From NCBI GenBank assembly GCA_035221665.1, contig CM069132.1:61814001-61878000 (forward strand): a stretch of 64,000 nucleotides of DNA, in the 5' to 3' direction. Made by a program: the position numbers and the translations under genes. The notes below the pieces were generated by a model, which saw only the letters and a list, made by a program, of their open reading frames with translations, did no database searches and was not told where the DNA came from. Below are positions 498 through 60,451 of the stretch, piece after piece. Each line of letters starts with the position of its first letter. Within the stretch, counting starts at the first letter, position 1. The stretch comes from Okamejei kenojei. Taxonomy: Eukaryota.

Positions 498-1550
498 TCA
501 CTGAGCGGCTCCCAGCACAGCATCTGCGAATGTCGCGGGGGTGACCAGTGGTTTATTGTAGAACCTTTGGAAGGTTGCTTCACTGGCCCAGCTCGCGGTG
601 GTGAGGATGTGGTCCATGGGCATCTCCATGGCCCTCGCCGCTGATGTGGATGCAGCCCTAGTGGAATGAGATTTTAAAATGTTAGTAGCGACTCCTGCTG
701 CACCCAACACCGCCCTGAGCCACCTGGCGATAGTCTGTACAGTCACCCGGTGATGCGGAGGTTTGTGGCTGATGAGGAGCCCCTGCTCCTTCTTCCTGAT
801 GGTTCTTGTAATTCGGATGTAGTGGTGGAGATGGGTGACTATGCAGAGGGTCGCATCAGTAGGGTATGCCCGAGACTCCAACTGCAGCCCATGAGCCCCA
901 GGCCTGTGCTGCTTCAGTAAGTCCTGGACAAAAAAATTCACCTGTGTAGGGGTGGAGACCATGCTATCCAGCTGCAGCTTTTGTAATGCCTGGACTTATT
1001 GAGCCATCAGCATCACCACTTTGAGGGTGAGCTGTTTGAGTGGTAACTCGTTCATTGGAGACCAGCTCCTCAGTAGGGTCAGAACAATCCCTACATCCCA
1101 GCTGAAGGTGTATCTGGGCCGTGGAGGGTTGGTGTTAAACACTCCCCTCATGAATTTAGCCACCAGGTGGTTTGAGCCTATACCTATGTCCAGGTATGAG
1201 GATAGTGCACTCCTGGCGCTGTTGATGGCACTGTAGCTAAGGCCAGCATCAAAATGAAGGCCAGCTAGGAATTCCAGGACATCAGGGATTGTTGCCGTGT
1301 TGGTAGTCATGTTGGTACGAGAGCAGAATGCCTCCCACTTCCTGATCTGTGTGAGGTACTGCCTCCGGGTTGATTCTCGGCATGATGCTGAGATGAGTTC
1401 CATGGCTCGTGGTGAGATGCCCGCCTTGATGAGTGGTCTTTTTAGAACCTGCAGGCCAACAAGTTTAGGTGACCATGGCATGGGTGACTGTCCACCGTAA
1501 TGGGGTGTGTAATTAATTTGGGGTGTTTCCCAATCGGAAGCCATGGTCAT
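498..1550 (-). pseudogene. DIRS tyrosine recombinase, split by a stop at 996-998
   Basis: N-terminal 'LSYSAINSARSALS' binding domain; C-terminal HSTR (H-x-x-R) and W..EATFQRFY catalytic-Tyr motifs. The stop falls about where the first catalytic Arg is expected. Confidence 0.88.
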
Positions 1551-3448
1551 TTCAAAATTTTAAGGACCATCGGGTACCATAGCTGTGTAGGCCAGTCGGG
1601 AATGATCAATATGCCAGTTGCAGAGTCCAGTTTAATTTTCTGCAATACCCGACTGATGAGGCAAAATGGGGGAAATGTGTAGCAAAACCATTTCCCCCAA
1701 TGGATAGAAAACGCATCCATTGCTATTGCCCCAGGGTCTGGTTCCCAAGACACATACGTTGGTATCTGATGGTTCAACCTGGATGCAAAGAGGTCAATAT
1801 CTGGTGTCCCATAGTGAGCTATCATGTCTCCAAAAATTTGGGGGTTCAACATCCACTCGATGTTGTCATTGAATACTCGTGACCTGGTGTCCGCCACTGT
1901 ATTAAGCTTCCCTGGCAAATAGGTCGCTGTAACCCAAATATTTCTCTCGATGCACCAGTGCCAAATTGTGTTTGCCAATTCATCACAAGATAGCGACCTG
2001 ATACCACCCATATGATTGATATAAGCCACCACCGTTGTGTTATCTATTTGGAGGCGGACATGTAAGTCCCGTGAGTTAGTACAGTTAGCCCGCAGTCCAT
2101 GAAAAGCCCCTAAGATCTCAATATAATTGATCCCTTGTGACTGAAGGTGGATAGATTCTTAAGAGTCCCATCTGCCACCACAACTGGACATGGTGTCAGG
2201 TGCACTCCAGCCTTGTGCGCTTGCGTCAGTCTGTAGCACGACGGATGGGTTGCTTACTATGATGGGTCTGTGACACTCGCTAATATTGTCAATCCACCTT
2301 TGTAGCTTGGCTAGCCTTTGGTGGTAATCGGAGTGGTCGATCAAAGTGCCCAGCATTTGCTTTTAATGCTGCGATCTTCGTTCTTTGTAAATTTTGGTAA
2401 CGTAATGGGCCGAATTGCACAGCTGAGAATGTAGCTACCAGTTTCCCTATTACTTTTGCCGTTTGCCGGATGGTCGGTACCCTGGCGCAAACAAGGCTGT
2501 GGCACGCTTCTTTTATAGCTATAGCTTTGTTGGTTGGGATGGTGATCATCATTAAGGTTGTGTCTAGGGTGAACCCCAAATAATCCATAATTGGAGAGGG
2601 GTGCAGTTTAGACTTGTCTGGATGGATTACAAATCCTAGCTTCTCGAATAAAGGTTTAGTCGCTGTAACCGCCCGCGTGGCCAATTGGAGGTTCTGACCC
2701 ACAATAAGGATATCATTTAAATATGCCATGACAATGTAATTTTGTTGTCGGAGGAGGGCCAATATAGGTTTCACTAATTTAGTAAATAGTCTGGGGGCTG
2801 TGGTGAGACCATTGGCAATGCTTTGTATTCCCACAACTGTTCCTTCCAGACAAATTTCAGAAACTTTCTGTGAGATTCAGTGATGGGCATTGTATAGTAT
2901 GCACCTTTTAAATCGATGCAGGCCATAAAGTACCCCGGGTAAAGCATCTGCATGGCTGTTTCAAAGGTATCCATTTTAAAGTGGGTATATTGTACAAAAG
3001 TGTTCAGCTCAGTTAGGTCTATAATAACTCGGCACCCCTCATCATTTTTGGTTTTGGTGAAGATGTTGGACACAAACTCAAGGGGTTCATGCGTTGCTTT
3101 CCCAATCACCCCTTTTTCGGCAAGCCGTAAAATTTTGGCATGTCCTGCTTCAACCTCTTTTTGAGAGAGTGTAAATTTTCGATGAGGCGAATGCTGGGTA
3201 GGGGAATTTTGACCAACAATGAATTCTATGACATAACCTTGAACACTTTGTAAAATAAACTCGTCAGTGGTGATAGTGTCCCAAATTTCCCAAAAGGCCT
3301 GCAACCGTCCACCAATTTGTGCAGGAAGGGATGCTACTGTCCGAGATGAACCAGGCCCCTTTACCTCCATGGTTAACGGCGGGTCCTGGCGTATGGCGCT
3401 TTGGGAGGACGTTGTGGAGGTTGTCGGGATGGCGGCCGCATCTTCCAT
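1547..3448 (-). pseudogene. DIRS pol: reverse transcriptase, RNase H and DNA adenine-methyltransferase-like domain (frameshifted)
   Basis: RT motifs RVIIDL..LN, IDLKGAY, APRLFTK, YLND (from YLDD), YLGF; RNase H TDAS..GW and VAYINHMGG; MT-like DLFAS...FPPF; spread over ORFs 2774-3448, 2289-2834, 2159-2356 and 1547-2032. Confidence 0.9.
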
Positions 3449-3514
3449 GCAGGCCGCTGTTGGCCTTGCCCTAAAAACGGCCGCTGTGGTTGGGGAAGTG
3501 GAGGGGGATAGGTT

Positions 3515-5200
3515 CTATCCGTGCCACAGCGTCCTATCCGTCTGACGTGGTTTCCAGTTGGTGTATGGTTGTTGCCGGTGGTATGGCTGGGGTCTAGTCG
3601 TAGGAGGTTTCATAAGGCCCGCTGTTTTGGCCTCCTCGTCTAGTTCCTTCACTTGTTTGGATAGATCTGTTCCAAACAGTTGATGAGGCGGTGGAGCGGT
3701 AGATGGACGGCACAACCCTGCAAATTTGGGGTTGAGAGTGGGCTTTATGGAGCTCTTGCGCAGGCAGTTGATTTCGTACTAGGCGTTGCATAAGAGTGAC
3801 AGAGCATCCTGTTGCTCGCTGGACACAATGTCCCCATCAAGGGGCCTAGCATACGCCGTTATGCCCGTGGAGAGGACCTTCAGGATACGCTGGAGGCGGA
3901 CATCCTGCATCTTGGTGGCCGTGCTCAAATGTCCCCAGATCTGAGCATTGACCAGGGGAACACTGAGGTTGATGCAGTTCTCAGGTGGTTTTATTTTCTC
4001 CATTGCCTCATTGAGTACCTGACCCTGAAGTTGGTGAGTGGTCAGGTAATCAATGGTGCCCGCCAGTTTGTGGTGCAGGGGTTCCCCTGTTTGTGTGGTC
4101 GTGGCAAACTTGCCCACCACGTCCAGCATATCCTCCTCGTGCTCTGGTTCTGCGGTCTCCGGCAGTCCCGGACCGTCTTCGAAAACAGCGGCCGGGCAAC
4201 TGCCGGCACTTCTGGCTGGTGAAGACGAGAGACTGAGTGGACTCCTGGTGCGGCTTGTGAATGCCCGCGAGTCCCGTTCATCCCGGTCCCTGTCCCGCTG
4301 GAGGAGTTGTTCCACTAAGAGCTCCAACCGCTCTATGCGACCGTCCCTGCTATGTGCAGCGGACAAGCCGACTTCCCCAGGTCATGCGATTTCACTGGGG
4401 CTTCCACCATCGGACCACACCTCCGTAAGGTGCTGACTAGGGTCCGCTGGCAGGTCGTCGTTTGAGCCTACAACCGCCCAAGTAGGCTCATACGACTCCC
4501 GCACGGACTCTCCGCTAGTCTGTCTTCTCGCAGACTGTGGCGGCCCACCTGTCTGGTACGAAGGCGGGTGAGTTGTATCGGCGCCGGCCCCCGGAACCTG
4601 GCTCCCCGGAGTCCGTGCAGGCTTACCTCCACTGTCGCCCAATAATCGGCATGGAGGCGCATGGTCGGCCGCTCCCAGAGCTAAGCTGACCGACCGTCTA
4701 CTGCTGCCACCAACGCCCTTGACCACAGCCTGACGAGAAGTTTTGCCGGCAGCACCTGCACCTGCAGGCCTGCTCGACGCAGCAGTAGTTCTGCCAGACT
4801 GCCCTATGACAGATATCTCTGGCAGTTGTACGTGGCGGCGTGCAGCTGCAGGACTCCCCTGCAGCGCAGCTGTCCCCCGGCCCAGTCCCCGTGGGTCTGC
4901 TGGAACTCGGGGTGAGGTTGCTGGTGACAAGCGAGGCTCCTTCCCACGTACCTGTTTGCCCCCCCTCTTCCTGGGGGATGGGGGCTCGAAGTCTGGGTCA
5001 GCAGGCTCCAGCTCCGGTGCGGTGAACCATTCAGGTGATGAGTCGGGCGCTGGTGTAACGGGAGCTCCTGACTTCCGCATTCTTACCCCCACACGTCCCG
5101 AAGCTGCCGGTGGTGCTTGCAGCTCCGGTGACAAAGGCCGCTGGCTGGTCGATGCCCCGCGGCTCCTGGAGAGCGTTGCCTTCCGTTTCCCTTTCTCCAT
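3515..5200 (-). pseudogene. DIRS ORF1 (gag-like), broken by stops
   Basis: Consecutive minus ORFs 4382-5200, 3779-4366 and 3515-3715 lie upstream of RT; includes DIRS ORF1-like 'PENC..L.VP.VN..IW' and 'LFG.DL'. Confidence 0.7.
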
Positions 5201-5489
5201 CCTGTAGGAGTAAGTTTCTACTTACCTGACGGTCCTTATGAAGGAGCTGGTGGAGAGAGCGCACTGCCCCCCCCCCAGCTTGTCGGTGCTAATGCGCGCG
5301 ACGATATGTCGCGCATGCGTGCTGGCGGGGTCTTCACGAAGTCACTATTGTGACTCCAAAGTAAAATACAACATTTGTGCCATGTTTGATTTCACGATGA
5401 GTACCAAACTTCCATGCAGTCGCTTGGAATGCATATTTTCACCTTTGCTACATCGCACGTTCCCACGCTTATCCAATTTTCACTGCTGC

Positions 5490-29976: not shown

Positions 29977-32900
29977 CCGTTAACATTACATAGAATGCTT
30001 CTTTTTCATTTATATTTACTATTGATTTTCATGACATTGAATCTTCCCTTAGTAAATGCAATTGATTAATTTAAATAATCCTGCATGATTGGCAAATAAT
30101 GATAAAATATTAATGAATTATTTTATATACACCTTTTACTCAATTGTACTATTGCAGATGACACTATCTCACCCACATCCCAGGTCATATCAATTAAAAG
30201 TAGAAAGTCAAATTCAATTCAGATATTTTGAAATTAATCAATGCAATTGTTTACATTTAATTTTGAAATGTGGCTCATTATTGCACAAAAGAATTGACAT
30301 GATTAAATATAAATGGAAATGTCAAGCAGAATATTCTGCAGCTCAAGCATTGTACATCTTCCATTCTGAAATTGAATCAATTATTCGTATTCTTCAGATT
30401 CTGGCTCAGAAAGGGCAAGATGATAATGACAGCAGTAAAACTAACAATGACAACAATAATAGCTAAAGCAAAATGAATTATGCACAGCAGCAGCAGTAGC
30501 AACAAGATGCACACACACATTCCTCCTGGTGAATTAAAAATGCATAAAGCAAAACAAAACATTTGAAGTCCAATTCTACTACATTCAGACGTTTAAATTT
30601 GATGCTTTCTGCGTTGATCCAGCATTCCTTCAACTTTAAATGGTTCTCTTTGCACCTGCAAGCTAGTTTTTAATGATTTCTGTACCTGTACCCTAAAGGC
30701 TGATCCTGCACTCCCAGCAGGGAGCAGCAGTCACAGGAAGCACAATGCAGGAAATTGTAGGTGCACAGTCGGTGATTTTCCATCTATTAAGATGAATGGA
30801 TGAAAAACCACAGGCCCCATGTACACAATTTCCCACATTGCTGTCCCTGTGGATGTTGTTCCCTGCTAGGAATAGTGAGCATGGAATCAGCTCTTAAATC
30901 CTTAAGCTCGTTTACTATGTGTCAGATTGGCTGAATTTTTAGCATTTTCCCCTTTGAGTCAGTAGGTTGCAGCCTCAACATCCGTTACAGATTTTAACAA
31001 ATAATCTCGGCTGACATTTCAGTGTAGCACAGAGCATTCTTAGCATCCTTTGGAGGAGACATTAAGCCAGTGTTTCTTTCGCTAAATACAATGATCAAAT
31101 GATATTGGGCCAGATTACACATACTTTTGCCAGCAGATGGTCAAACTTTGAAAGGAAACTCAGTACTGGTGTCTGATATCTCTGCAGTGAATGGCTAAAT
31201 GTGTCCGTTTACTCCATAGAAGTGATCTCCTTAGAATTCAACCACAGATCCAATTTTTGCTGGGATATCCTTGCACTGCACAGGGAAATGGTTATTCAGA
31301 TCAATTATCTCAATTGTTTCAGTGGGAATTGCAGAGGAAACATTTGGGTGGCAAGAGAGAGGGTAAGTTTAAAACAAAATTATTGTGCATTATTTTTAAG
31401 ATTTTAATTATTTATGCACATTTTGCATTTTAATTAACTTACTTTTTATTTTAAAATATGTACATTTAAATTATTTATTTCAATTTTAATAATATTTATT
31501 TAAATTAGTCTGAATATCTGACATTTTAAAGGTGTTAAAATTACTGAACCCATTTACAGCCACTGAATGTCAGGGGCTGTCAAAGGAGTTTTGGAGTAGG
31601 GACCTCCTCACAGCACCACCCAAGGCCCTGTCACCACGTGCGCTAAGCAGTTGGACTCCAGGCTGTGGACAGCAACCCACATAGATCCTCTGCATTTGCA
31701 CCAGATAATTACAGGCAGGGACAGTGGACACCAAATCTGGACAGGGTGAGTGCGTTTGCACGATCAAGGGGTTTCCCCTCAATGCATCACATTTGAAGTT
31801 CAGTTCAGTTCAATTGTCACGTGTGTAGTGCAGGTACAGTGAAAAGCTTTTGTTGTGTGCTAACCAGTCAGCAGAAAGACAAAAACATGATTACAATCGA
31901 GCTGTTTACAGTGCGTAGATCACGTAATCTTTCAGTTTCAATTCTTCTGTGGAATTGTTCAGCTACGATACAGCAAAGAAACATGTCATTCAACCCATCT
32001 TATCCATGCTCACCGTTGGCACCCAGGCTGGTCCTATTCAGAATGCAAGACTCTCTCCTTTCTGTCTCTGCAACCTCATCAGGTTCTACAACATTCCAAG
32101 CTCCACCTTTGATCAATTCTGGCTTCCTGTTCATTTATTAGTCATTTGGAAATTGCACCTTTAGCCCAAAGGGCTCAAGCTTTGACTCTTCCTCCCTCAG
32201 CAGCTTGGCCTTTCTATTTCCTTTCATTAGAATCTAATAATCTCCTACTTTGACCAAGCAGCCCATCACCTTCATTGTCTCTGTGTCTGTCGTTTTATCC
32301 AACAATGCTCCTATAAAGCAGTTTAGGACATTTGAATAATTTAATTGTAATAAGGAAATGCAAGCAGTTGTAACAAGCAGGCATGAGATTGGACAAGCAC
32401 CCTAGCTGGTTCTCATCCAATAACTGTGGATGGGTCTTGGCGCATATTAGTTGTATTCCCGACTACTCATCCAGTACATGGTCTGTAGGGTTGGTTGGAT
32501 ATTAGTCATCTTCCCTCTGGATCGATTCTAATTGTACACGCTTAATTAGTTCCCCGTGGTAACAGCTGGTGACAAGGAAACAGTCAAATGGACACAACAC
32601 ACCGCCGAGAGTGTCATTTTCAGATTCCCTCCAACAGGGAAGATCTTTGTAATTGAAAGAAATGCATGTATGCTTTATCTAAATCACATGTTTATGGTTG
32701 GAGAAAAAAAACATATTTTGCGTGTAGTTGCAAAGCTGTCATGTTATATATAATCATTCAGAAATATATGTGCAAAACCGCACATTGCATAGTAGACTTC
32801 ACAAAGCAGTAAAAAACGAAATCACATTAGTCAAATGTGACTATAAACAACATTTCTATAATAGCCACCGTGTTAAATTATATCTGAAGCAGCGAATAAA

Positions 32901-35900
32901 ATATGTACAACAAAAGGCGATGCGTATATATGTTTCGAGGTGAAGTAAGATCTCTGAATATACTGTGGAAGAATTAGAATGAGGCGAGCAACACGCCAAC
33001 CGTTGATTGCCTGCTGTTTCAGAAAACTCCAGAAGCTCTGGCTGCATCTGTGTTTCACGCCTCGCAGAGCTCCACGGGTGCTCTAGTTGCCACTCGCTGT
33101 CCTCTTGCTCCCCCTCCTGTTGTTTCACATTACTACCCCATAATGGTACCGAACCCCAGTTGGCAGAGGCTACGTGCCCCGTATTGCACCTTTCCCTCGC
33201 ACAAATTGAACTGGGTTTTTTTTTCTCATAAACATTTCCTTTTTCTGTCACGAAAAATAATTTATTGCTTTTTTTCCCGAGTTTTTGCACGTCATTGTGG
33301 TTGACAAAGCAATGTATTAACCTTTTCCTTAATTTTTAGACTACTATCATTCCATTCTATATTTTTGCGGTAAGATACAAAAACAATGAAAATATACTTG
33401 GTATTGATATAACTCTGATGGTTCGTTTTTTTTCGGGAACATAAAATGATCGTGACGTTAAGCAACCGAACTCAAAACGGAAATAAAGGAATTTCGCAAT
33501 TTATTTAAGAACCACTGGAATAGCATAGAAGCAATGGTAGAGGTGGGTTGTGATTTGATTGTTGACTATTTCGGGAATAAATTTAATGGATATTAAAGAT
33601 TTTTATATAATTACATTTGCTTCTCCAACTGAACGAGTAAGTGATCTAAATATAAAACGATTGACTTGCAGTGTGAAATAGGCTAGACTGTGTCATTTTT
33701 AAACTGGTTTTCATCTTCGTTTAAACTAATTAAAGCACGCGTATTTACGCAAGTTTGCTTGCCTTGTAAAATCTACAGGTTTAGGTACTTGCGTTGTGAG
33801 CTAGGAGTTTAAGAAAAAAACGGTGACTTACCTTATAGAAAATGTTAGACTTCTCGCTGGGGGGCCTTGCGCTTGTCGCGGCAGCATTTTCACAAGTGCC
33901 TTAAATCTGTAGTTAATTGAAAAATGAGGATGCGTTCGACTGTGTTATGTCGAAAGAGTCTTAAGATTTCTAACATTACCATTTCGAACCAATGTACATG
34001 GATACAAGCGTAACGTTAACACGATTTTCAAAAGACATAGAGCAAAATCCACGGGATTTTTTTAATCGGTACCTTACAGCTTTAGCATTATTTAACATGT
34101 TCAGTTTAAAAACAACACACCCACAATGATTAAACCAACGTTAAAATAGTCCAATTTCATTTGCACTACACACTGACATTAATCTTGGTAATAACTCATG
34201 GTTTTTAGTGCATTTTTATGGTCTATAATTGTCACTGGGGATATTTTTGACTTCCTGGAATGGAAAGCAGTGTGACTGTGACCGTGCCTTTGAACTACAA
34301 ATACTATTTGTTCAAATAATTTACCTGCATTATCTGAAATGGTATAATTAACAAATTCTCGAAAAGTGGAGGCAAGGTAGAGCCAACTAAAACACGTATT
34401 TGGCAATAATAATTGCGCACTAAAGTATGTCAATTAATGGGCATAAGCTTATTAGTTTTGTGACACGAGACCAGTCAAACATTATTAGGTTTTGAGAGGT
34501 TGGAGTGCAGCTGATAAGAAGCATTGGAGAGGATGAAAGGAGCAATATGCTTTATACCGTGGCCTTTACTCCAATCTGCCCACAACACACTCAAGCAATG
34601 AAACACCTCCGGGAAGTGGTCGAATGCTTTTAAACCAATCAGCTGCCAGTTGACTTGCCAGCACCCATATTTCGATCGAGTTGTTTTCGGGTTTATTTCA
34701 AGCAATGCATCCTTTGGATCTAACGAAATCAACGGGAACATGAGTTTATGCATGCAATGATCAGATGCGCTCAGAAAAAAAAAAATTGCCCCAGCCGACC
34801 AAACCAAGTTGAGGCTTGGTTAATTTTAGAGTGAGCTGATCATTGTTCCCAGATATCTTCCCCCCTTACCACCACCTCGACCCCCAGCCCGGGCGATTAT
34901 ATGTTGAGAGACCACACCCGCTTAGCTCGTTCCTGTTTCCGACAATGATTCGTTGAAAACGATATGATTTAAAATAATTCAGAGATCCAGCTAAACGTTT
35001 CAGGATATCAAAAACTTGAAACGCAGTCCTTATAAAAATAAATTATTGTTTAAAGAAAATATTTAAGGTGAAATACACGTTCAGCAATTTCTGGATTCGT
35101 TTCACTTTCCTATTCCCTTCGAACATTTGGAATGATTTATTTCACCGCGATCAATGAAATCGAACACCAAAGCTTAAGTTAAGTAATGATGCAGTAATAT
35201 TTATAGAGCGAAGAGCACTGATGAAAACATCGACAGATGAAAACGATGTAAAATTGAAAGGCACAATATAGTTTCGGTAGAAGGAAATGCTCGCTCTGTT
35301 TTATTAGAGATATTTGGGGTGGGGATTTTGGTGAAAGAACGTCGTGCAAAAAAATCGGCAATGCCAACTAAAAAGTACGAGAACGGGAGGGGGGGGGGGA
35401 TTACTACTTTGGATAGTTTTAACTAGCTCAGGACACCAAGGACACTCCTTTTGTTCGGCACTAAGCATTTTATTGCTTCGGGACTAAATATTTGTTTAAA
35501 AGTAATTTAGGTGCCTTTGATGAAAGCCTAGGTGCTCTGCCAGATGTAATGGTCAATACATCTCAAACTTCCCGTGTCCTTTTGCTAAATTAGCTGGAGC
35601 AGAGCCATTTGTCCAACCATATTTCATATATTCAGTTTCAGCAAAGAATGTCCCTCTGCAGGTAAACTGCGCAAATCTACTGCAAAGTAAATGTAAATCT
35701 TGAGTTCGATGGAAATAACATTTCTGACGTTGGCTCATATTCTGCATCTGGCAATGTAAATCTGGCGACTACCTCGCTGTTCTTGCTTCGAATACTGGAG
35801 GCCTGTTTGCAGTTTTACCTTTCTATTTCAACACAGTTAGTGTAACATAATGATGCAATTGTATAAGCGAAGGATGCGTCCTGTTTCAACATCGACAACT

Positions 35901-37423
35901 TTGTGCAGCGCGTTAAAAAGATTGAATTCTGCATTCATGTGTGCTGTTCAGCCAGGTCCAGGTAAACACAAAACCAACAATCAGCTAACAGCAACGATGC
36001 TTGTGGGCGAAACTCCTAATTCGGGAAAGAACGGCATTCTTGAAAGTCTCCCATTTAACTTTGAAGACATCTAGCGGCAAAGTTGTGTCACTACAATGCA
36101 GTTACAGGGATAATTTGGCTCAGAAATATGAGCTGTACGTATATAGCTTTTACTTCTTCCCAAAGTGACAGTGACTATTTTTATTGGTCACTTCTCCGGC
36201 ATCTCAAAGATTTGATGTGACTCCCTACGGTTGTGATCGAATTTTCGAGTCAAGAGTTTGTATAGACCCTGCTCTTGAGTATCTAAATAGTTGAGTTGCA
36301 GTCATTCCCGAGAGCTCCTTGACTGGCCTGGAACTTGGCTGAACATGCAAGGGTCAGACAGGGTATCTGTGGACATATAGAGACTCATCGGTTTTCTCAT
36401 CTGACTGGTCAGATTAAGAGATATCCCGATGAAGAAACTGACGACATCCTGGTGGCATCCCTGATTCTTTAATCCAACGGAAAATAATTCATAACCTGCC
36501 TTCTGTCGGTATGGTGGGGATGCACATAGAACGAGTTAGTCACTGGAGACAGTTTACGGTCGATTTAAAACATTTTCAATCAAACATTTTCAGGCTATAT
36601 TAATTTAGAAAGATTCAGTAAATTGTCGATCAACCAAAAACAAAAGCCAAATAAAATCATCTGTGTTGCGTTTTTGTAGAAATAAATGCAGTGTTTTGTG
36701 TTAATTAAAATAATTTGCCATCTATTAAATAGTCGGAAAATATGCAATACATTTGCGAATCATAGCAGTCTCATCTTTTCCTTAAATATTATCAAATATA
36801 ATACCTCACATGCTATTGGACTCCGCTGGCTGATACCAGCTACCTCGCGCAAACACTCAATTAATTTTCGACATGGAAGACTTCATTTGGATCCTCTGAT
36901 TATTGTAGTTTCACGCTGCCTCCATGCAGCAGAAAGAGCGCCAGTCTACGACTATAGGACCGAGTTTAGTACCAAGTCGATCGTGTTTTACATTTGGGGT
37001 ACATAAACTGACATAAAGAAGGGATTTGGTCTAAAAGCGACCGTACAATGTAATAGTAACATGTTATCATTATGTTATGACAGTTTTTCAACAGCCTGTA
37101 GGTAAGCTGACTAGCTACAGCTTACTACCCAGGAAACATCTTTGTTGGAGAAAGAGGAAATAATCGGACCATCCTTTTGTGCAACCTTTATCGGAGGCAA
37201 CTGTAAACAAGGATTTGCAGATGTTTGTTTCGAAATGTTTCCACATGAATTCAAAGACCAAGCCCGTACAAATTACAGGAGCAACGATTAATTGGTTTTG
37301 AATAAGTATTCGTTTGGGAATTCATTTAGCTATTACCTAATGGAGGTGCACCGTAAACAATTGCTGGATAGTATACAATGCGACGATTCTCCAAGAATTA
37401 ATGATTTATTAGCACGGAAAAAC

Positions 37424-37583
37424 NNNNNNNNNNNNNNNNNNNNNNNNNNNNNNNNNNNNNNNNNNNNNNNNNNNNNNNNNNNNNNNNNNNNNNNNNNNNN
37501 NNNNNNNNNNNNNNNNNNNNNNNNNNNNNNNNNNNNNNNNNNNNNNNNNNNNNNNNNNNNNNNNNNNNNNNNNNNNNNNNNNN
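37424..37583. other. Assembly gap (160 N)
   Basis: Run of N; a pLTR fragment starts right after it (37586-37640). Confidence 1.
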
Positions 37584-38634
37584 CCGAAGATAGACACAAA
37601 AGGCTGGAGTAACTCAGCGGCACAGACAGCATCTCTGGAAATTTTATATATCTATATATATATCGCAGATGTCCATTCTCGATTTTGCAATCACAAATAT
37701 GCGTTCCAATAACCGGGAGTTAAATATTAGATATGACATTTTCAAGATATATTAATGTCCAGAACTAGTTCATATTTTCAGCTTACCAATATAGTGTATA
37801 GGAAAAAAAGCGACAGTAAGTAAAGTTAAGAACCATAGTTATCAATATATTAAATATTTGCAATTAAGGTACATGTTGTACTAAAATCAATGCTAATGCA
37901 ACAGTACCAAATGAATGACGTGTCCTAATATCGTCCTAGACATTTACAATGAATTATACCAAAGTACCTTTGGCGTTTAATCTACCTTCACACTTAATAC
38001 ATGTATACAATGCATAAAATGTTGATTTAATATAGTGCGGGTACCAGTTACATTACATCACAAAAAAACCTATTTTCATTTTTAATGGTAATTCATATAT
38101 ACTTAAATCTATTTATGGGTCTTAACCTAGGGATGATTTTTTAAATTTCCATAATACTTGAATCGTTTTCCTTGAGTTTATTATGAGTGTAGACAGGAAG
38201 ACAGAACTCCACATATATGTATGTAAAACTACCTAAGGAGTTTTAGCTATTAGTTTATAGTTTACAGACAATTGAGACGAGATTCGGTACCTCAAAGCTG
38301 ATAGTTACAACTCTGATAAACCTTCTTTGTCTATCAAAAGTGCACATATTGTACATTTTGGCCCATTGAAGCAAAATAATGCATTAAATATTACCATGTA
38401 CTTTTAATCGCTGGTTGTGATTTTTTAGGTAAGAATAAAGCTTTACAAAAGTCATAGTGAATATAACAATGGCTTAATTGTACTTTATTGTCATGTACAC
38501 CTAAGTGCAGTGAAATGCATTTCCCATTCAATTCAGTGACGATCCTATTATACATTAGGCACAATCATGCTAAGCAAAAGTCTATAAGACAGTAGACCAA
38601 TTAAAACAAATAATTAAGTCTTATTCATTCGCAG

Positions 38635-39045
38635 CTCGAAGCAATGATTCTCCCTGGCCTGGCCACCCAAGAACTCGGTTAAAAGTAGGGAATCCATAAT
38701 ATCAATTTCCAGATGGCAAAACCCAACAGTTCTGTCGAGGAAACCTGTTTTCTGACCCCTGAAGTACAACGACAAAACGAACATGCAAAATTAGTAGCGA
38801 TTATGGTGCGTTTGTCTCTGTTTCCTGGGGTATGGGCGAGGGTGTGGCAGTGGTAATGGTGACGTTTGGGCAGGACAGCAGACGAACAAACCAGGGAGGG
38901 TTGCAATTAGAATAAGGAGCAAAAGCGAAAATATGTCTTAAAGGGGTCCAAACTTTTTTGTTAAATGGGAGTAACATTTTGTAATGGCAGACCGAATTCC
39001 GATTTCGGGAAGATCTGCGCCAGAGAAGAAAAGGCTCGTTAGCTT
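38635..39045 (+). pseudogene. HoxA14: HoxA14 pseudogene: relics of the two homeobox exons
   Basis: Acceptor TTCATTCGCAG at 38634; RTR...P* then QMAKPNSSVEETCFLTPEVQRQNEHAKL (38710-38793) matches the Hox14 pattern Q..ELE..FEENRFLTPEVR.N...KL; donor GTGCGT at 38806; acceptor at 38990, then decayed WFQNQRQKEK-like CGATTTCGG..CGCCAGAGAAGAAAAGGCTC; 6 kb 5' of HoxA13, same strand. Confidence 0.7.
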
Positions 39046-39097
39046 CCAACTAACTGGAACTAATAATGCAGTTATGACTGCAGTTCCAAAACAAAAT

Positions 39098-39190
39098 CCG
39101 AAGAAAGGTGTCGACTCGAAACGTCAACCATTCCTTCTCTCCAGAGATGCTGCCTGTCCCGCTGAGTTAGTCCAGCTTTTTGTGTCTATC
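39098..39190 (+). mobile_element. Solo pLTR-type repeat
   Basis: CCGAAGAAAGGTGTCGACTCGAAACGTCAACCATTCC...TTTTTGTGTCTATC. Confidence 0.75.
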
Positions 39191-45042: not shown

Positions 45043-45691
45043 ATGACAGCGTCAGTGATACTTCATCCCCGCTGGATCGACACGGTGATGTTCGTCTACG
45101 ACAATAATTTGGATGAAATTAATAAAAGCATGGATGGATTTTCAGGAGGGAACTTCACAGCAAACCAATGCAGGAATTTGATGGCCCATCCAGCATCCTT
45201 AGCCCCCAGTTCTGCCTACTCGTCGAGTGAACTACCAGCCTCTGGCATTGTTGAACCTGTCAAACAATGTAGTCCTTGTCCAGCTGCTCAAACTTCCTCC
45301 AGTGCTTCTCTTCCTTATGGATACTTTGGGAGCAGTTACTATCCTTGCCGAATGAGCCACCATAGCAGCATTAAGTCCTGTGCGCAGCCCTCCACCTTGT
45401 CTGGCTATCCTGCCGACAAGTATATGGACACGTCCGCCGGCGAAGAATTCACCAACCGAGCTAAGGAGTTTGCTTTCTACCAAGGCTACGCGGGGCCATA
45501 CCAACCAATGCCCAGCTATTTGGATGTACCTGTTGTCCCCACGATCAGCGCCCCGGGAGAACCGAGACACGAAACATTATTACCCATGGACAGCTACCAG
45601 CCCTGGGCAATTACCAACGGGTGGAACGGTCAAGTCTGCTGTTCAAAAGAGCAACCTCAAGCCACCCACCTCTGGAAGTCGAGTCTGCCAG
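45043..45691 (+). CDS. HOXA13: HoxA13 exon 1
   Basis: [21 protein letters not shown]...VKQCSPC...[18 protein letters not shown]...[11 protein letters not shown]...WNGQV...HLWKSSLP; donor G|GTAAAT at 45692. Confidence 0.97.
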
Positions 45692-46091
45692 GTAAATATA
45701 GATAAAACGTAATCTAGTCCCCATAACCGAAACCCGCCCAATGAAGGGGGAAAGCATTCTGTCTGACTTGCAAATGCGTACGGGTAACTGAATGATATAT
45801 ACATTAAACCACAGTTAAGAAATAATATTCCGGATGTGCCCAACATAAATGTGCCTTTCACGTTTTTAATGTACTGCCTAAACATATTTCTTTTTAAAAT
45901 ATCATTCATTCAACTTACTACGCATTAAAATTACATTTGCTGGTATGTCATTTAGTTCAGTAAATAAATTCCAGTAGTTTCTCCACGCACTGATGTTGAA
46001 CTTGACACCAGCGACATTCTCTGTTTTTTTTTCCTGTCGACGGGCGTTAAACTGCAAAGGAGAGTAAAGGTGTGTTTTATTTTCTTTATAG

Positions 46092-46336
46092 ACGTCGTTT
46101 CTCATCCTTCGGATGCGAGCTCTTTTCGGCGTGGAAGAAAGAAAAGGGTGCCTTATACCAAGGTGCAATTAAAAGAACTTGAACGGGAATATGCTACCAA
46201 TAAATTCATCACCAAGGACAAGCGAAGGAGGATATCGGCATCAACAAACCTCTCAGAAAGACAAGTCACTATTTGGTTTCAAAACAGACGAGTCAAAGAA
46301 AAGAAAGTCATCACCAAACTGAAAAGTAACAGCTAG
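46092..46336 (+). CDS. HOXA13: HoxA13 exon 2 (homeodomain); spliced protein 297 aa
   Basis: Acceptor TTTCTTTATAG; [49 protein letters not shown]...[11 protein letters not shown]; phase-1 join is in frame. Confidence 0.97.
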
Positions 46337-50657: not shown

Positions 50658-52378
50658 TAAATAAAACCAAACTGAAATGCTGAAATCACGTTGAATGTCA
50701 ACAGCAGGGCACGCCTGCGACTGCCTAGGTTAGGGATTTATAATGGACTATTCATAAGTACAAAGATAACATATATTTGGTTTGACATTACTGACATTAT
50801 AGATCGTAATATGGAACTATTTGTAAATAATATGTAATGGCATTCCAATGCTAAATCAGCTACGTAACTAATGTTTGGTGCAAACAACGAAACATCTTCA
50901 TAAAACAGAACATTATATCACATACAAACCTAGACATTTGAGTTTGCGGTTTATGAGGTACCGCAGCATAATAGTTGAAAACAATGACTCTCTGCTTTGT
51001 AATAGATACATATCAACAAGTAGACAAACATTTTATAGATTAACATAAAATATTTGTTTATTCATATGCACCCACAAAGTTGCGGCATTTGAATTAATAA
51101 CGGTTACATTATTATTTTTGGCAAATAAGGTCAAAGGGAATTTCGTGTGTAGAATGTGTTCGTTCTTGTACGACCAACTGGTGCAATTTTTTACAATTTC
51201 CAAATAACATTTGGAACGATTAAGATTACATGCGTCTTATATATTATGAGGTATTCAGAAGGAATATATTGTATATATTATATAATATTCATATACAAAA
51301 TATAATTTTACTTCATGTTCATATTTCACTTCACTAACATAGTGTCCGATATTAAATTAAAACAAAGTATACATATAAACGGAAGATAGACACAAAATGC
51401 TGGAGTAACTCAGCGGGACAGGCAGCGTCTCTGGAGAGAAGGAACGGGTGACGTTTCGGGTCGAGACCCTTCTTCAATTATATCAGTGTAATCGCATTAA
51501 CAATATAAATTTTCACAGCCACAATGTTTAAAGTGTATTTTATATTCTAATTTTGAATTTCTTTGAAATTAAACCTAACTATTCAATGTACGAGATTTTC
51601 TTTGCTGAACAATAATGGTTAGTTTCAATTACAATATTGTTAATTCCAACGCCAAATGCATGCCCTGAATAATCTGGATGATACCTAAGGAAACATAATT
51701 TATTAAAATATACGTGCACAGTGTTTCTGGAAGTAAATCTAATTTCCAGTAAAGATTACGAAATATTGGATGTTTTTACATTATACATTTTTATATATCG
51801 TCTTGCAAATCAGTTGTCTAGTAGGGTAGTGGTGTTCTTTGATGTTTTACAAAATATAATAGATAGCAATGCTCCTCCTAGTATTCAACTTGGAAGCTTA
51901 GTCTACATATTTATTGTTGTGAAGTGTTATGTTGTTGAAACCCAATTCGGAATGTGGAAAAGCTTCATTCGTTGTTTTAAAATAGTTCATGAATTAGCAA
52001 GGAAATGTTCACTTCCCTTATCCAAATGGGATAGATAGCTGGGTGTAAACAGATCAAATAAAAGTTCCAATGGTCGCTGAGTTCACAGCTCTGTGAGCAA
52101 GTGTTCTTCAAAAAACTGAAATAGCATATAGTGCCCATTATGCTTCAAACATTTATTACGTTCTGCAATTGGGGGTAGAAAATAATATGCATTCAGAACT
52201 ACAATCATTCAAATTAATTTACACAACTAATCAACAAAGCAATGAATGCAGTTGAAATTCGTTAATTTTAGCTTTCATGATATAACATTGCTGACTCCAT
52301 CCTTCACGCACGCAGTCGCGGGCCTGCCCTGATGTTGACACTTCACGTATTTTCAGCATTTCACTTTGATTTTATTTA
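50658..52378. repeat. Pair of ~67-bp diverged inverted repeats (50658-50724 and 52312-52378)
   Basis: TAAATAAAACCAAACTGAAATGCTGAAA...TGTCAACAGCAGGGCACGCCTGCGACTGC vs reverse complement TAAATAAAATCAAAGTGAAATGCTGAAA...TGTCAACATCAGGGCAGGCCCGCGACTGC. Confidence 0.85.
51382..51476 (-). mobile_element. Young solo pLTR-type repeat with hammerhead core, inside the HoxA cluster
   Basis: Reverse complement TGAAGAAGGGTCTCGACCCGAAACGTCACCCG..., CpGs intact. Confidence 0.85.
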
Positions 52379-58456: not shown

Positions 58457-59066
58457 ATGATGGATTTTGATGAGCGGGTTTCTTGTGGCTCTAATCTTTA
58501 TTTGCCTAGCTGTACCTATTATGTCTCCGGTCCGGATTTCTCCAGCCTGCCTTCATTTTTACCCCAAACACCGGCTACTCGTCCCATGACATATTCTTAC
58601 TCGTCTAATATCCCCCAGGTTCAACCTGTGCGAGAAGTTACCTTCAGAGACTATGCCATCGATCCTTCCAATAAGTGGCATCACAGAAGCAATCTCCCCC
58701 ACTGTTATTCCGCAGAGGAGCTGATGCACAGAGAATGCCTGCCTGCCAGCACCATGGGCGAGATGTTAATGAAAAATAGCGCCAGCGTTTACCACCCCAG
58801 TTCCAACGCGACTTCCAGCTTCTACAACCCGGTGGGTAGGAACGGTGTCCTGCCGCAAGGATTTGATCAGTTCTTCGAGACTGCCTACGGTTCTAATGAG
58901 AATCAGCAGTCGGAGTATTGCGGGGAGAAGAGCCCAGGTAAAGTGCCGTCTGCGGCAACTTCAAGTTCGGAGACTTCCAGGGTGTCGGTGGAGAAGGAGA
59001 CGAGTCCCGGGAGCAGCAGCCCGGAATCTTCTTCCGGCAACAATGAGGAAAAAAGCAGCAACTCTA
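58457..59066 (+). CDS. HOXA11: HoxA11 exon 1
   Basis: [39 protein letters not shown]...[11 protein letters not shown]...[19 protein letters not shown]; donor A|GTAGGT at 59067. Confidence 0.97.
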
Positions 59067-60218
59067 GTAGGTAGAATCAGTGCCTACTTATGAAGGAAAG
59101 TTTTGCGATCTCGCGCGCTGCTGTTAAAAATTTTATGTGCTGTTTTATAAGCATATAAGGGGGTTTATGGATGGCCTGTAGATTTCCCAACAAAACTTTT
59201 TTTTTAAATAAATGACAGGATCACGTGTTCCGCTCTGAAATTGGCCGTGAAATAACACCGGCCAATCCCTGCATTAAAATAGCTCATCTAGCACCTCTAA
59301 ATGTGAAATTTGGATTAAAAATATGGTCATTTAAATTATTAGGTGTGCATTCATAAAAACATAGCAATTTGGCCGTTGTGATCTACGCGTGTATGAATAC
59401 AGCACACGAATTCTATAAAACACGTGTTGACACAAAAACTCTATTTATAGGTTGTATTCAGTTCCATAAGTAACCGCTTTAAAACATAACAGGGTAAAAT
59501 GACATTTTTAACAGCAACATAAATAGTACAGTACCTTTAGCACAGAGGTTTCTATCATAAAAACTTATTTCAGATTGAGTGACCATATTTTATTTAATAA
59601 TCACATTTTATAGCTGGACGAGCGATAAGCACAGCTTTAACAGTAGTACTTCTGGAGCATGCCTATGTCGACTTTTACAAAACGGAATATCTACACAACA
59701 AGACCCCCTCCCTTAAGAAAACCAATTCATGTTCCCAGCACCTTTATAATGACAGGGCGATTGTGTCATGCTTCAAATCCTTTTAGATTTAACACTCTAA
59801 ATTAAATAAAACGTCGTGCTCTTCGCTTATTTTCTGTCTTTAATGCTCTTATACTCGGGCGTTTCATCTGTAAAAATCATTTAGCTTCCCAATGTGGGTA
59901 GTTCCTGGGTATGGAAATTTTTGTAATTTCAAGTACTCTTTGGAAGGGGAGTATCACAGCTTTAACTTAAGAAGTTCCACAACCATTATGGTAACCGAGG
60001 CAGCCATCTTATGTTTCAAGACCCATTCAACATGTTAAAATGCGCTTTAAAGCTTAGCGAAGTCTTCTGTATATCGTCATTGGTGGTAGATATTGCTGTG
60101 TAAAATGTATGAATTATGTCGAGGTGCTCCGAATTACAGCAAAGTATATGTTGCTCCTTAGAAAAACATTGGATATTCTTACTTATCAATGTTTTAACGT
60201 ACTGTTTACCTGTTACAG

Positions 60219-60451
60219 GTGGCCAGCGTACACGTAAAAAAAGATGCCCCTATACCAAGTACCAGATCAGGGAGCTGGAGAGAGAATTTTTTTTCAGTGT
60301 CTACATCAACAAGGAGAAGCGCCTGCAACTTTCCCGCATGCTCAATTTAACCGACCGGCAAGTTAAAATTTGGTTTCAGAACAGGAGGATGAAGGAAAAG
60401 AAGTTAAACAGGGACCGCCTTCAATATTACACTACGAATCCATTGCTCTGA
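60219..60451 (+). CDS. HOXA11: HoxA11 exon 2 (homeodomain); spliced protein 280 aa from the first ATG
   Basis: Acceptor CCTGTTACAG; [62 protein letters not shown]...YYTTNPLL. Confidence 0.97.

Follow-up and report, generated by a model that had tools for sequence, protein, structure and literature searches.

A probable HoxA14 pseudogene with a decayed, split homeobox upstream of HoxA13 in a skate

Does the DNA 5′ of HoxA13 in a skate still hold the remains of a HoxA14 gene, and do the splice signals left in those remains point to a transcript? Hox14 genes have three exons and a diagnostic WFQNQR motif, and cartilaginous fishes are described as having HoxD14 together with pseudogenes of the other group-14 paralogues (PMC3509897, in the portion available). 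The available portions of further papers report A14 and B14 pseudogenes in the elephant shark (PMC3707753), a retained HoxA14 in lungfishes and the coelacanth (PMC3038165, PMC7875771), and a retained Hoxa14 in caecilians, with decayed exons in turtles and some crocodilians (PMC11600591). A 2009 paper on the little skate HoxA cluster states, in its available passages, that skate and horn shark lack HoxA14 (PMC2746220), and the word 'pseudogene' is absent from its whole text. The little skate genome paper names neither HoxA14 nor Hox14 in its text or in three searchable supplements (PMC10115646), and term searches of PMC1845163, PMC9456325, PMC3692103, PMC5054439 and PMC4184313 added nothing. 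We thus found no report of a batoid HoxA14 pseudogene in the literature searched, which covered texts and not figures; the skate copy may already be drawn in some cluster figure.

The window, the whole 64-kb stretch of DNA analysed here, is, as judged from its gene content, the 5′ end of the skate HoxA cluster. Two intact posterior Hox genes, Hox13 and Hox11, lie within it on the plus strand (Table 1). In the database, Hox13 exon 1 came closest to a chondrichthyan HoxA13 cluster (95%). In a comparison with 15 of the 23 members of that protein cluster, the window protein differed at 4 residues from Amblyraja and Leucoraja and at 7–14 residues from the other 13 chondrichthyan proteins. The DNA is therefore that of a skate, and the cluster is HoxA. 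No Hox12 homeobox was seen between HoxA13 and Hox11, and no Evx1 homeobox in the window, including the ~36 kb upstream of the relic. Repeats fill the upstream interval 1–38600, and Evx1 would lie further out. The CpG observed/expected ratio steps from 0.22–0.54 to 0.74–0.99 at ~32 kb, and in a self-comparison of the window the self-repeats become sparser past the same point. We read this step near 32000 (0.22 below, 0.77 above) as the 5′ edge of the Hox domain; the exon 1 relic lies ~4 kb downstream of it. A skate-specific non-coding RNA has been predicted upstream of Hoxa13 (PMC2746220, available passages).

Table 1. Coordinates of the Hox genes, the relic and an adjoining repeat, in positions of the window
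Feature	Positions	Strand	Remarks
Exon 1 relic, N-terminal piece	36055..36096	+	14 codons matching HoxD14 residues 10–23
Exon 1 relic, core	36293..36433	+	HoxA14 profile positions 56–102; TGA in frame at 36320–36322
Intron 1, with the unplaced end of exon 1 (probably at about 36.5 kb)	36434..38634	+	Ends in AG 38633–38634
Exon 2 relic	38635..38805	+	Phase-1 start, pre-homeobox stretch, homeodomain residues 1–38 alignable
Homeobox-splitting intron 2, 179–185 nt	38806..38990	+	Acceptor AG homologous, pyrimidine tract poor; donor uncertain
Exon 3 relic	38991..39085	+	Helix 3 decayed, then weak A14-like tail
Interspersed repeat fragment	39097..39190	.	Adjoins last alignable exon 3 codon; copies elsewhere in window
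HoxA13, intact	45043..46336	+	Exon 1 45043–45691, exon 2 46092–46336; ~6 kb downstream of HoxA14 relic
Hox11, intact	58457..60450 (end approximate)	+	HoxA11 by position

Pfam and PDB searches returned no homeodomain for the read-through of exon 2 or exon 3; the best matches, RE_MamI (E 0.045) and a hydrolase (E 1.8), were taken as chance. A word-based homologue search with the exon 2 read-through listed 16 candidates, all of them with E above 10. Since these searches are blind to the homeodomain, real Hox14 sequences were needed as queries. Plain tblastn with Hox14 proteins reached E 0.06–10 at the relics among the matches listed, no better than noise elsewhere, and a frameshift-aware protein-to-DNA aligner was therefore purpose-written. 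It scores each codon by its likelihood as the decayed form, base by base, of a codon for the query residue, with parameters of our own choice. A profile of the relic and the window HoxA13 retrieved 101 proteins, three of them Hox14-like and one of these named HOXD14 at source. The final query set came from a second search with those three proteins, from which the relic was left out, and comprised 3 sarcopterygian A14, about 15 D14-type and 3 cyclostome proteins. Neoceratodus HoxA14, Heterodontus and Polyodon HoxD14 and Eptatretus HOX14I carry Hox14 names at source, and the other A and D labels are by similarity. Most of the intact Hox14 proteins (P0227, P0232, P0239–P0254) are misnamed at NCBI as Hox-B9a-like, Hox-D12-like, Hox-C10-like or hhex-like, which hides them from name searches.

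When the whole window was scanned on both strands and the two intact homeoboxes were set aside, 18 of 19 queries had their best peak at the exon 2 site. Hox14 exon 2 queries scored 28.9–39.1 bits there, against a maximum of 22.2–25.4 bits in 60 local shuffles of 33.5–44.9 kb (0/60 for each of four queries, out of eight scored). Furthermore, among 299 distinct homeodomains, a panel rich in Hox13 and Hox9 with few Hox11/12, all 21 Hox14 homeodomains took ranks 1–21 over the 278 others (23.7–39.3 versus ≤18.1 bits). The earlier note on this DNA, which read 38635–39045 as a HoxA14 pseudogene, had named a missing Hox14 alignment or a transposon match as what would speak against it; Hox14 homeodomains outscored all others at exon 2, and a transposon origin of 38635–39085 was rejected, as the window holds no second copy. 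The landmarks that the note listed are also present where it placed them, namely FLTPEV at 38749–38766, the AG at 38633–38634, GTGCGT at 38806–38811 and the AG at 38989–38990. Exon 2 additionally carries SPWPGH at 38649–38666. It shows a net 8-nt loss at 38667–38683, stops at 38680–38682 (TAA) and 38686–38688 (TAG) and one extra codon near 38767. Its acceptor AG falls at the exact expected end of a phase-1 first intron, ranked first among 21 AGs with 4 of 5 queries and follows 12/20 pyrimidines; the actual 3′ end of the exon falls within 38805–38811.

Some 180 nt of non-aligning DNA separates the last alignable exon 2 codon from exon 3. As a free local match exon 3 is weak, its score being reached in 6–58 of 60 shuffles, and in 3/150 and 11/150 when the search was kept within 1 kb. 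When matches were anchored to an AG, 38989–38990 was the best of the 104 AGs in the following 2 kb for all five queries (0–2/400 shuffles), and exon 3 begins directly after it, exactly before homeodomain residue 45. In helix 3, W48 reads R, Q50 reads R, N51 reads D and Q52 reads L, while F49, R53 and Q54 are retained, so that of WFQNQR only F and R remain; a single base change would turn the codon at Q52 into either Q or R, and Q54 is common to all Hox14 entries. The exon has gained 3 nt near 39009 and lost 1 nt near 39024. The earlier description of this exon as a decayed RQ-K-E-K stands for the R-Q codons at 39018–39023; the direct frame then reads RRK, and K-E-K-K appears only past the 1-nt gap. 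A by-eye reading of the exon 3 tail as diagnostic of A14 was dropped, the tail alone being not significant (81/300 shuffles).

When exons 1 and 3 were sought across the whole window against a fixed AT-rich background, spurious peaks arose in GC-rich repeats (the exon 1 site ranked first for 2 of 3 A14 queries, exon 3 outside the top four for 19 of 19), and nulls were therefore restricted to 33.5–44.9 kb. The exon 1 that the earlier note had suggested seeking upstream was found there, beyond the segment it described, as a core and an N-terminal piece in different frames. The core scored 46.8 bits with the A14 profile (0/150 and 0/300 shuffles), while the D14 profile stayed at chance level (14.2 bits, 200/300). 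The match of A14 residues 1–55 at the relic was not significant by shuffling, the stretch separating the two pieces found no placement, and the search for the exon 1 tail and its donor gave no significant placement (61/300 and 169/300 shuffles reach the score). Intron 1 contains a 160-N assembly gap at 37424–37583 and a repeat fragment at 37586–37640.

The N-terminal piece scored 22.2 bits with the D14 profile, a value reached in 0/300 shuffles of 35900–36292 and 2/150 of 35900–36700; over the 11.4 kb of 33.5–44.9 kb it was not significant (7/60 and 11/60). It lies 238 nt from the core, where the proteins, counted along the alignment, predict roughly 230–260 nt. No ATG stands at the expected start of the piece, and the ACG at 36031 may be a decayed start codon. 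The extension to which this piece corresponds is found in HoxD14 and lamprey Hox14 and is missing from the three annotated HoxA14 proteins and from the Callorhinchus D14 entry. Its absence from the A14 entries may be a matter of annotation: coelacanth and lungfish HoxA14 may have been annotated from a downstream ATG, or the extension may have been lost there. The piece suggests that ancestral HoxA14 had the extension. Just upstream, at 35741–35979, in the expected place of a promoter, a 239-nt contig matched with 5 differences; it came from one of the three sequencing runs listed, none of them given as RNA and the best with a share of 0.06. This run, probably of DNA, was tried on 35400–37420 and is silent on expression, and it gave no match over the exon 1 relic.

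The homeobox alone does not discriminate between A14 and D14 (37.5 versus 36.9 bits), and neither does the exon 3 tail. The pre-homeobox stretch scored 18.6 bits with A14 (0/300 shuffles) and 11.9 bits with D14 (34/300). The three exon relics lie in order on one strand, at the right spacing and 5′ of HoxA13. Since the A14-specific exon 1 and the position of the locus agree, we identify the relic as HoxA14. The identity first read from the homeobox is thus borne out by position, by the paralogue-group comparison and by the A14-specific exon 1 and pre-homeobox stretch, and the pseudogene state by stops and indels. The relic is non-coding: it has three in-frame stops (36320, 38680 and 38686), exons 2 and 3 carry indels, and W48 and N51 are lost. 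Homeodomains need R5, W48, Q50 and N51 for fold and DNA contact, and all four are changed.

Of 37 near-invariant Hox14 positions, 15 are retained, 18 are one base away, four are two bases away and none is three away. Maximum likelihood puts the divergence at d = 0.40 substitutions per site (about 0.25–0.6), a value drawn from the best-aligned part of the relic that may be too low. As far as the codons tell, this one-base-off pattern is the signature of base-level drift after loss of protein function. Taken together, the relic is very probably an unprocessed, unitary pseudogene of HoxA14, decayed in place and neutrally, where neutrality is judged from one copy. HoxA14 would have been inactivated long ago in the cartilaginous-fish lineage, with its ohnologue HoxD14 retained, and would then have drifted without selection on the protein; Rhinoraja, a skate, has an intact D14-type Hox14 protein (P0244). 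The present relic yields no functional homeodomain protein and very likely plays no role by itself. That it can still be read would be due to the slow change of chondrichthyan genomes and to its place in a repeat-poor, CpG-undepleted Hox domain; low methylation and the slow chondrichthyan rate are the likely causes. A very high degree of conservation has been described between the skate and the horn shark (PMC2746220, available passages).

Intact coelacanth and lungfish HoxA14 proteins (P0254, P0250 and P0227, of which P0250 is named HoxA14 at source and the other two were labelled A14 by us) share with the relic three exons, a phase-1 first intron, an intron before residue 45, the FLTPE and RQ residues, a place upstream of HoxA13 and an alignable exon 1. 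They differ from it in that the relic has stops and indels, has lost W48, Q50 and N51 and has a repeat behind exon 3. A horn shark A14 pseudogene was reportedly described by Powers and Amemiya in 2004. The HoxA14 pseudogenes of other cartilaginous fishes match the relic in locus and in state and differ in lineage, the skate being a batoid; the relic is almost certainly their orthologue. The decayed Hoxa14 exons of turtles and crocodilians likewise have persisted for long in slowly evolving genomes, although they stem from an independent loss in tetrapods.

Next we asked what the splice signals say. The split-homeobox intron claimed earlier holds up on its acceptor side, both acceptor AGs sitting at homologous positions, whereas its donor is not pinned to 38806. 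GTGCGT at 38806–38811 is the best donor consensus nearby (7/9). However, codons counted onward from the last aligned residues place the collinear donor at 38812, where the sequence is TT; 38806 lies 6 nt upstream of it. A rough posterior, with donor frequencies drawn from general knowledge, gives 0.49 to a destroyed site at 38812, 0.29 to a GT at 38810 and 0.17 to 38806. At d of 0.25–0.6, neutral survival is 0.35–0.62 for one dinucleotide, 0.12–0.39 for two and 0.04–0.24 for three. Because two AGs are expected to survive in 12–39% of neutral histories, the splice signals do not count as evidence of transcription, and the sequence does not support the earlier suggestion of a spliced non-coding RNA; the exon 3 acceptor, moreover, has 8/20 pyrimidines as against 14/20 for HoxA13.

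The strongest competing explanation is nonetheless that posterior-Hox control still drives a spliced non-coding RNA from the relic, whether or not this RNA has a regulatory role. In its favour, and against a purely neutral relic, both acceptors survive together with a 7/9 donor near the expected place, a set of three dinucleotides that neutral histories keep in 4–24% of cases. The locus also belongs to the CpG-rich Hox domain, with HoxA13 6 kb away, and a 38805/38991 splice would carry a 51-codon frame from an ATG at 38713, without N-terminal arm, W48 or N51. There is a precedent in the bowfin, whose hoxd14 pseudogene, the one Hox14 pseudogene studied in embryos in the literature consulted, is spliced and expressed in the fin bud, vent and tail bud (PMC8423624, available portion). 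Like the relic, it is a Hox14 pseudogene with stops and a preserved split-homeobox junction; unlike the relic, it belongs to the D cluster and keeps WFQNQR, whereas the skate copy has lost the motif and is known from sequence alone. The gar hoxd14 pseudogene, according to the same portion of that paper, is without evidence of transcription. In addition to the TT at the collinear donor position, the poor exon 3 acceptor and the frequent survival of two AGs by chance, the exon 1 donor search gave no placement and no Rfam family matched anywhere in the window. On balance, we consider a spliced transcript from the relic quite unlikely. A broader proposal would be that transcription and splicing of the HoxA14 relic continue in the posterior embryo of the skate hundreds of millions of years after the protein was lost, so that Hox14 loci of two clusters, D14 in the bowfin and A14 in the skate, survive in two fish lineages as non-coding regulatory RNAs or as enhancers that tune Hox13; on the present analysis it is unlikely.

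Parts of the relic could instead have been co-opted, independently of any transcript, as cis-regulatory DNA, an enhancer or boundary for HoxA13. Preservation is uneven, a 140-nt exon 1 block and the middle of exon 2 being alignable where the exon 1 flanks are not, and the location within the Hox domain would suit such a role. Yet indels and distance to the query proteins also give uneven alignability, and five intact codons in a row among 37 at 40% retention are unremarkable, so that co-option appears very unlikely. That the relic is a later copy of HoxD14, B14 or Hox13, or a chance match, is scarcely credible: the homeobox does fit A14 and D14 equally and the N-terminal piece matches D14 proteins only, but the exon 1 core matches A14 only, the introns are present and exclude a retrocopy, the relic sits in the HoxA14 position, the 171 Hox13 homeodomains reach ≤17.7 bits at most, and the N-terminal extension also occurs in lamprey, is missing in Callorhinchus D14 and may be absent from A14 by annotation.

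The skate HoxA14 relic is thus most likely an ordinary fossil gene. HoxA14 pseudogenes are already known elsewhere and the skate copy adds to them; only if the locus turned out to be transcribed or regulatory would it come as a surprise to specialists. It fills a gap in the map of Hox14 losses, as a batoid with a readable three-exon HoxA14 fossil where the available passages of the little skate paper judged the gene absent (PMC2746220). A comparison of its lesions with those of shark and chimaera copies would date the loss of HoxA14 and tell a single from a repeated loss, a point left open in the available portion of PMC3509897.

Among the few repeats within the Hox domain are two that flank exons 2–3, at 37586–37640 and 39097–39190. 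They belong to the same family in inverted orientation (92% over 51 nt) and could pair in any read-through transcript; a further copy of the second lies at 51385–51475 (91% over 91 nt). Near the start of the window, minus-strand frames at 498–5221 show, by eye, reverse transcriptase, RNase H and tyrosine recombinase motifs and resemble a fragmented DIRS-type retrotransposon.
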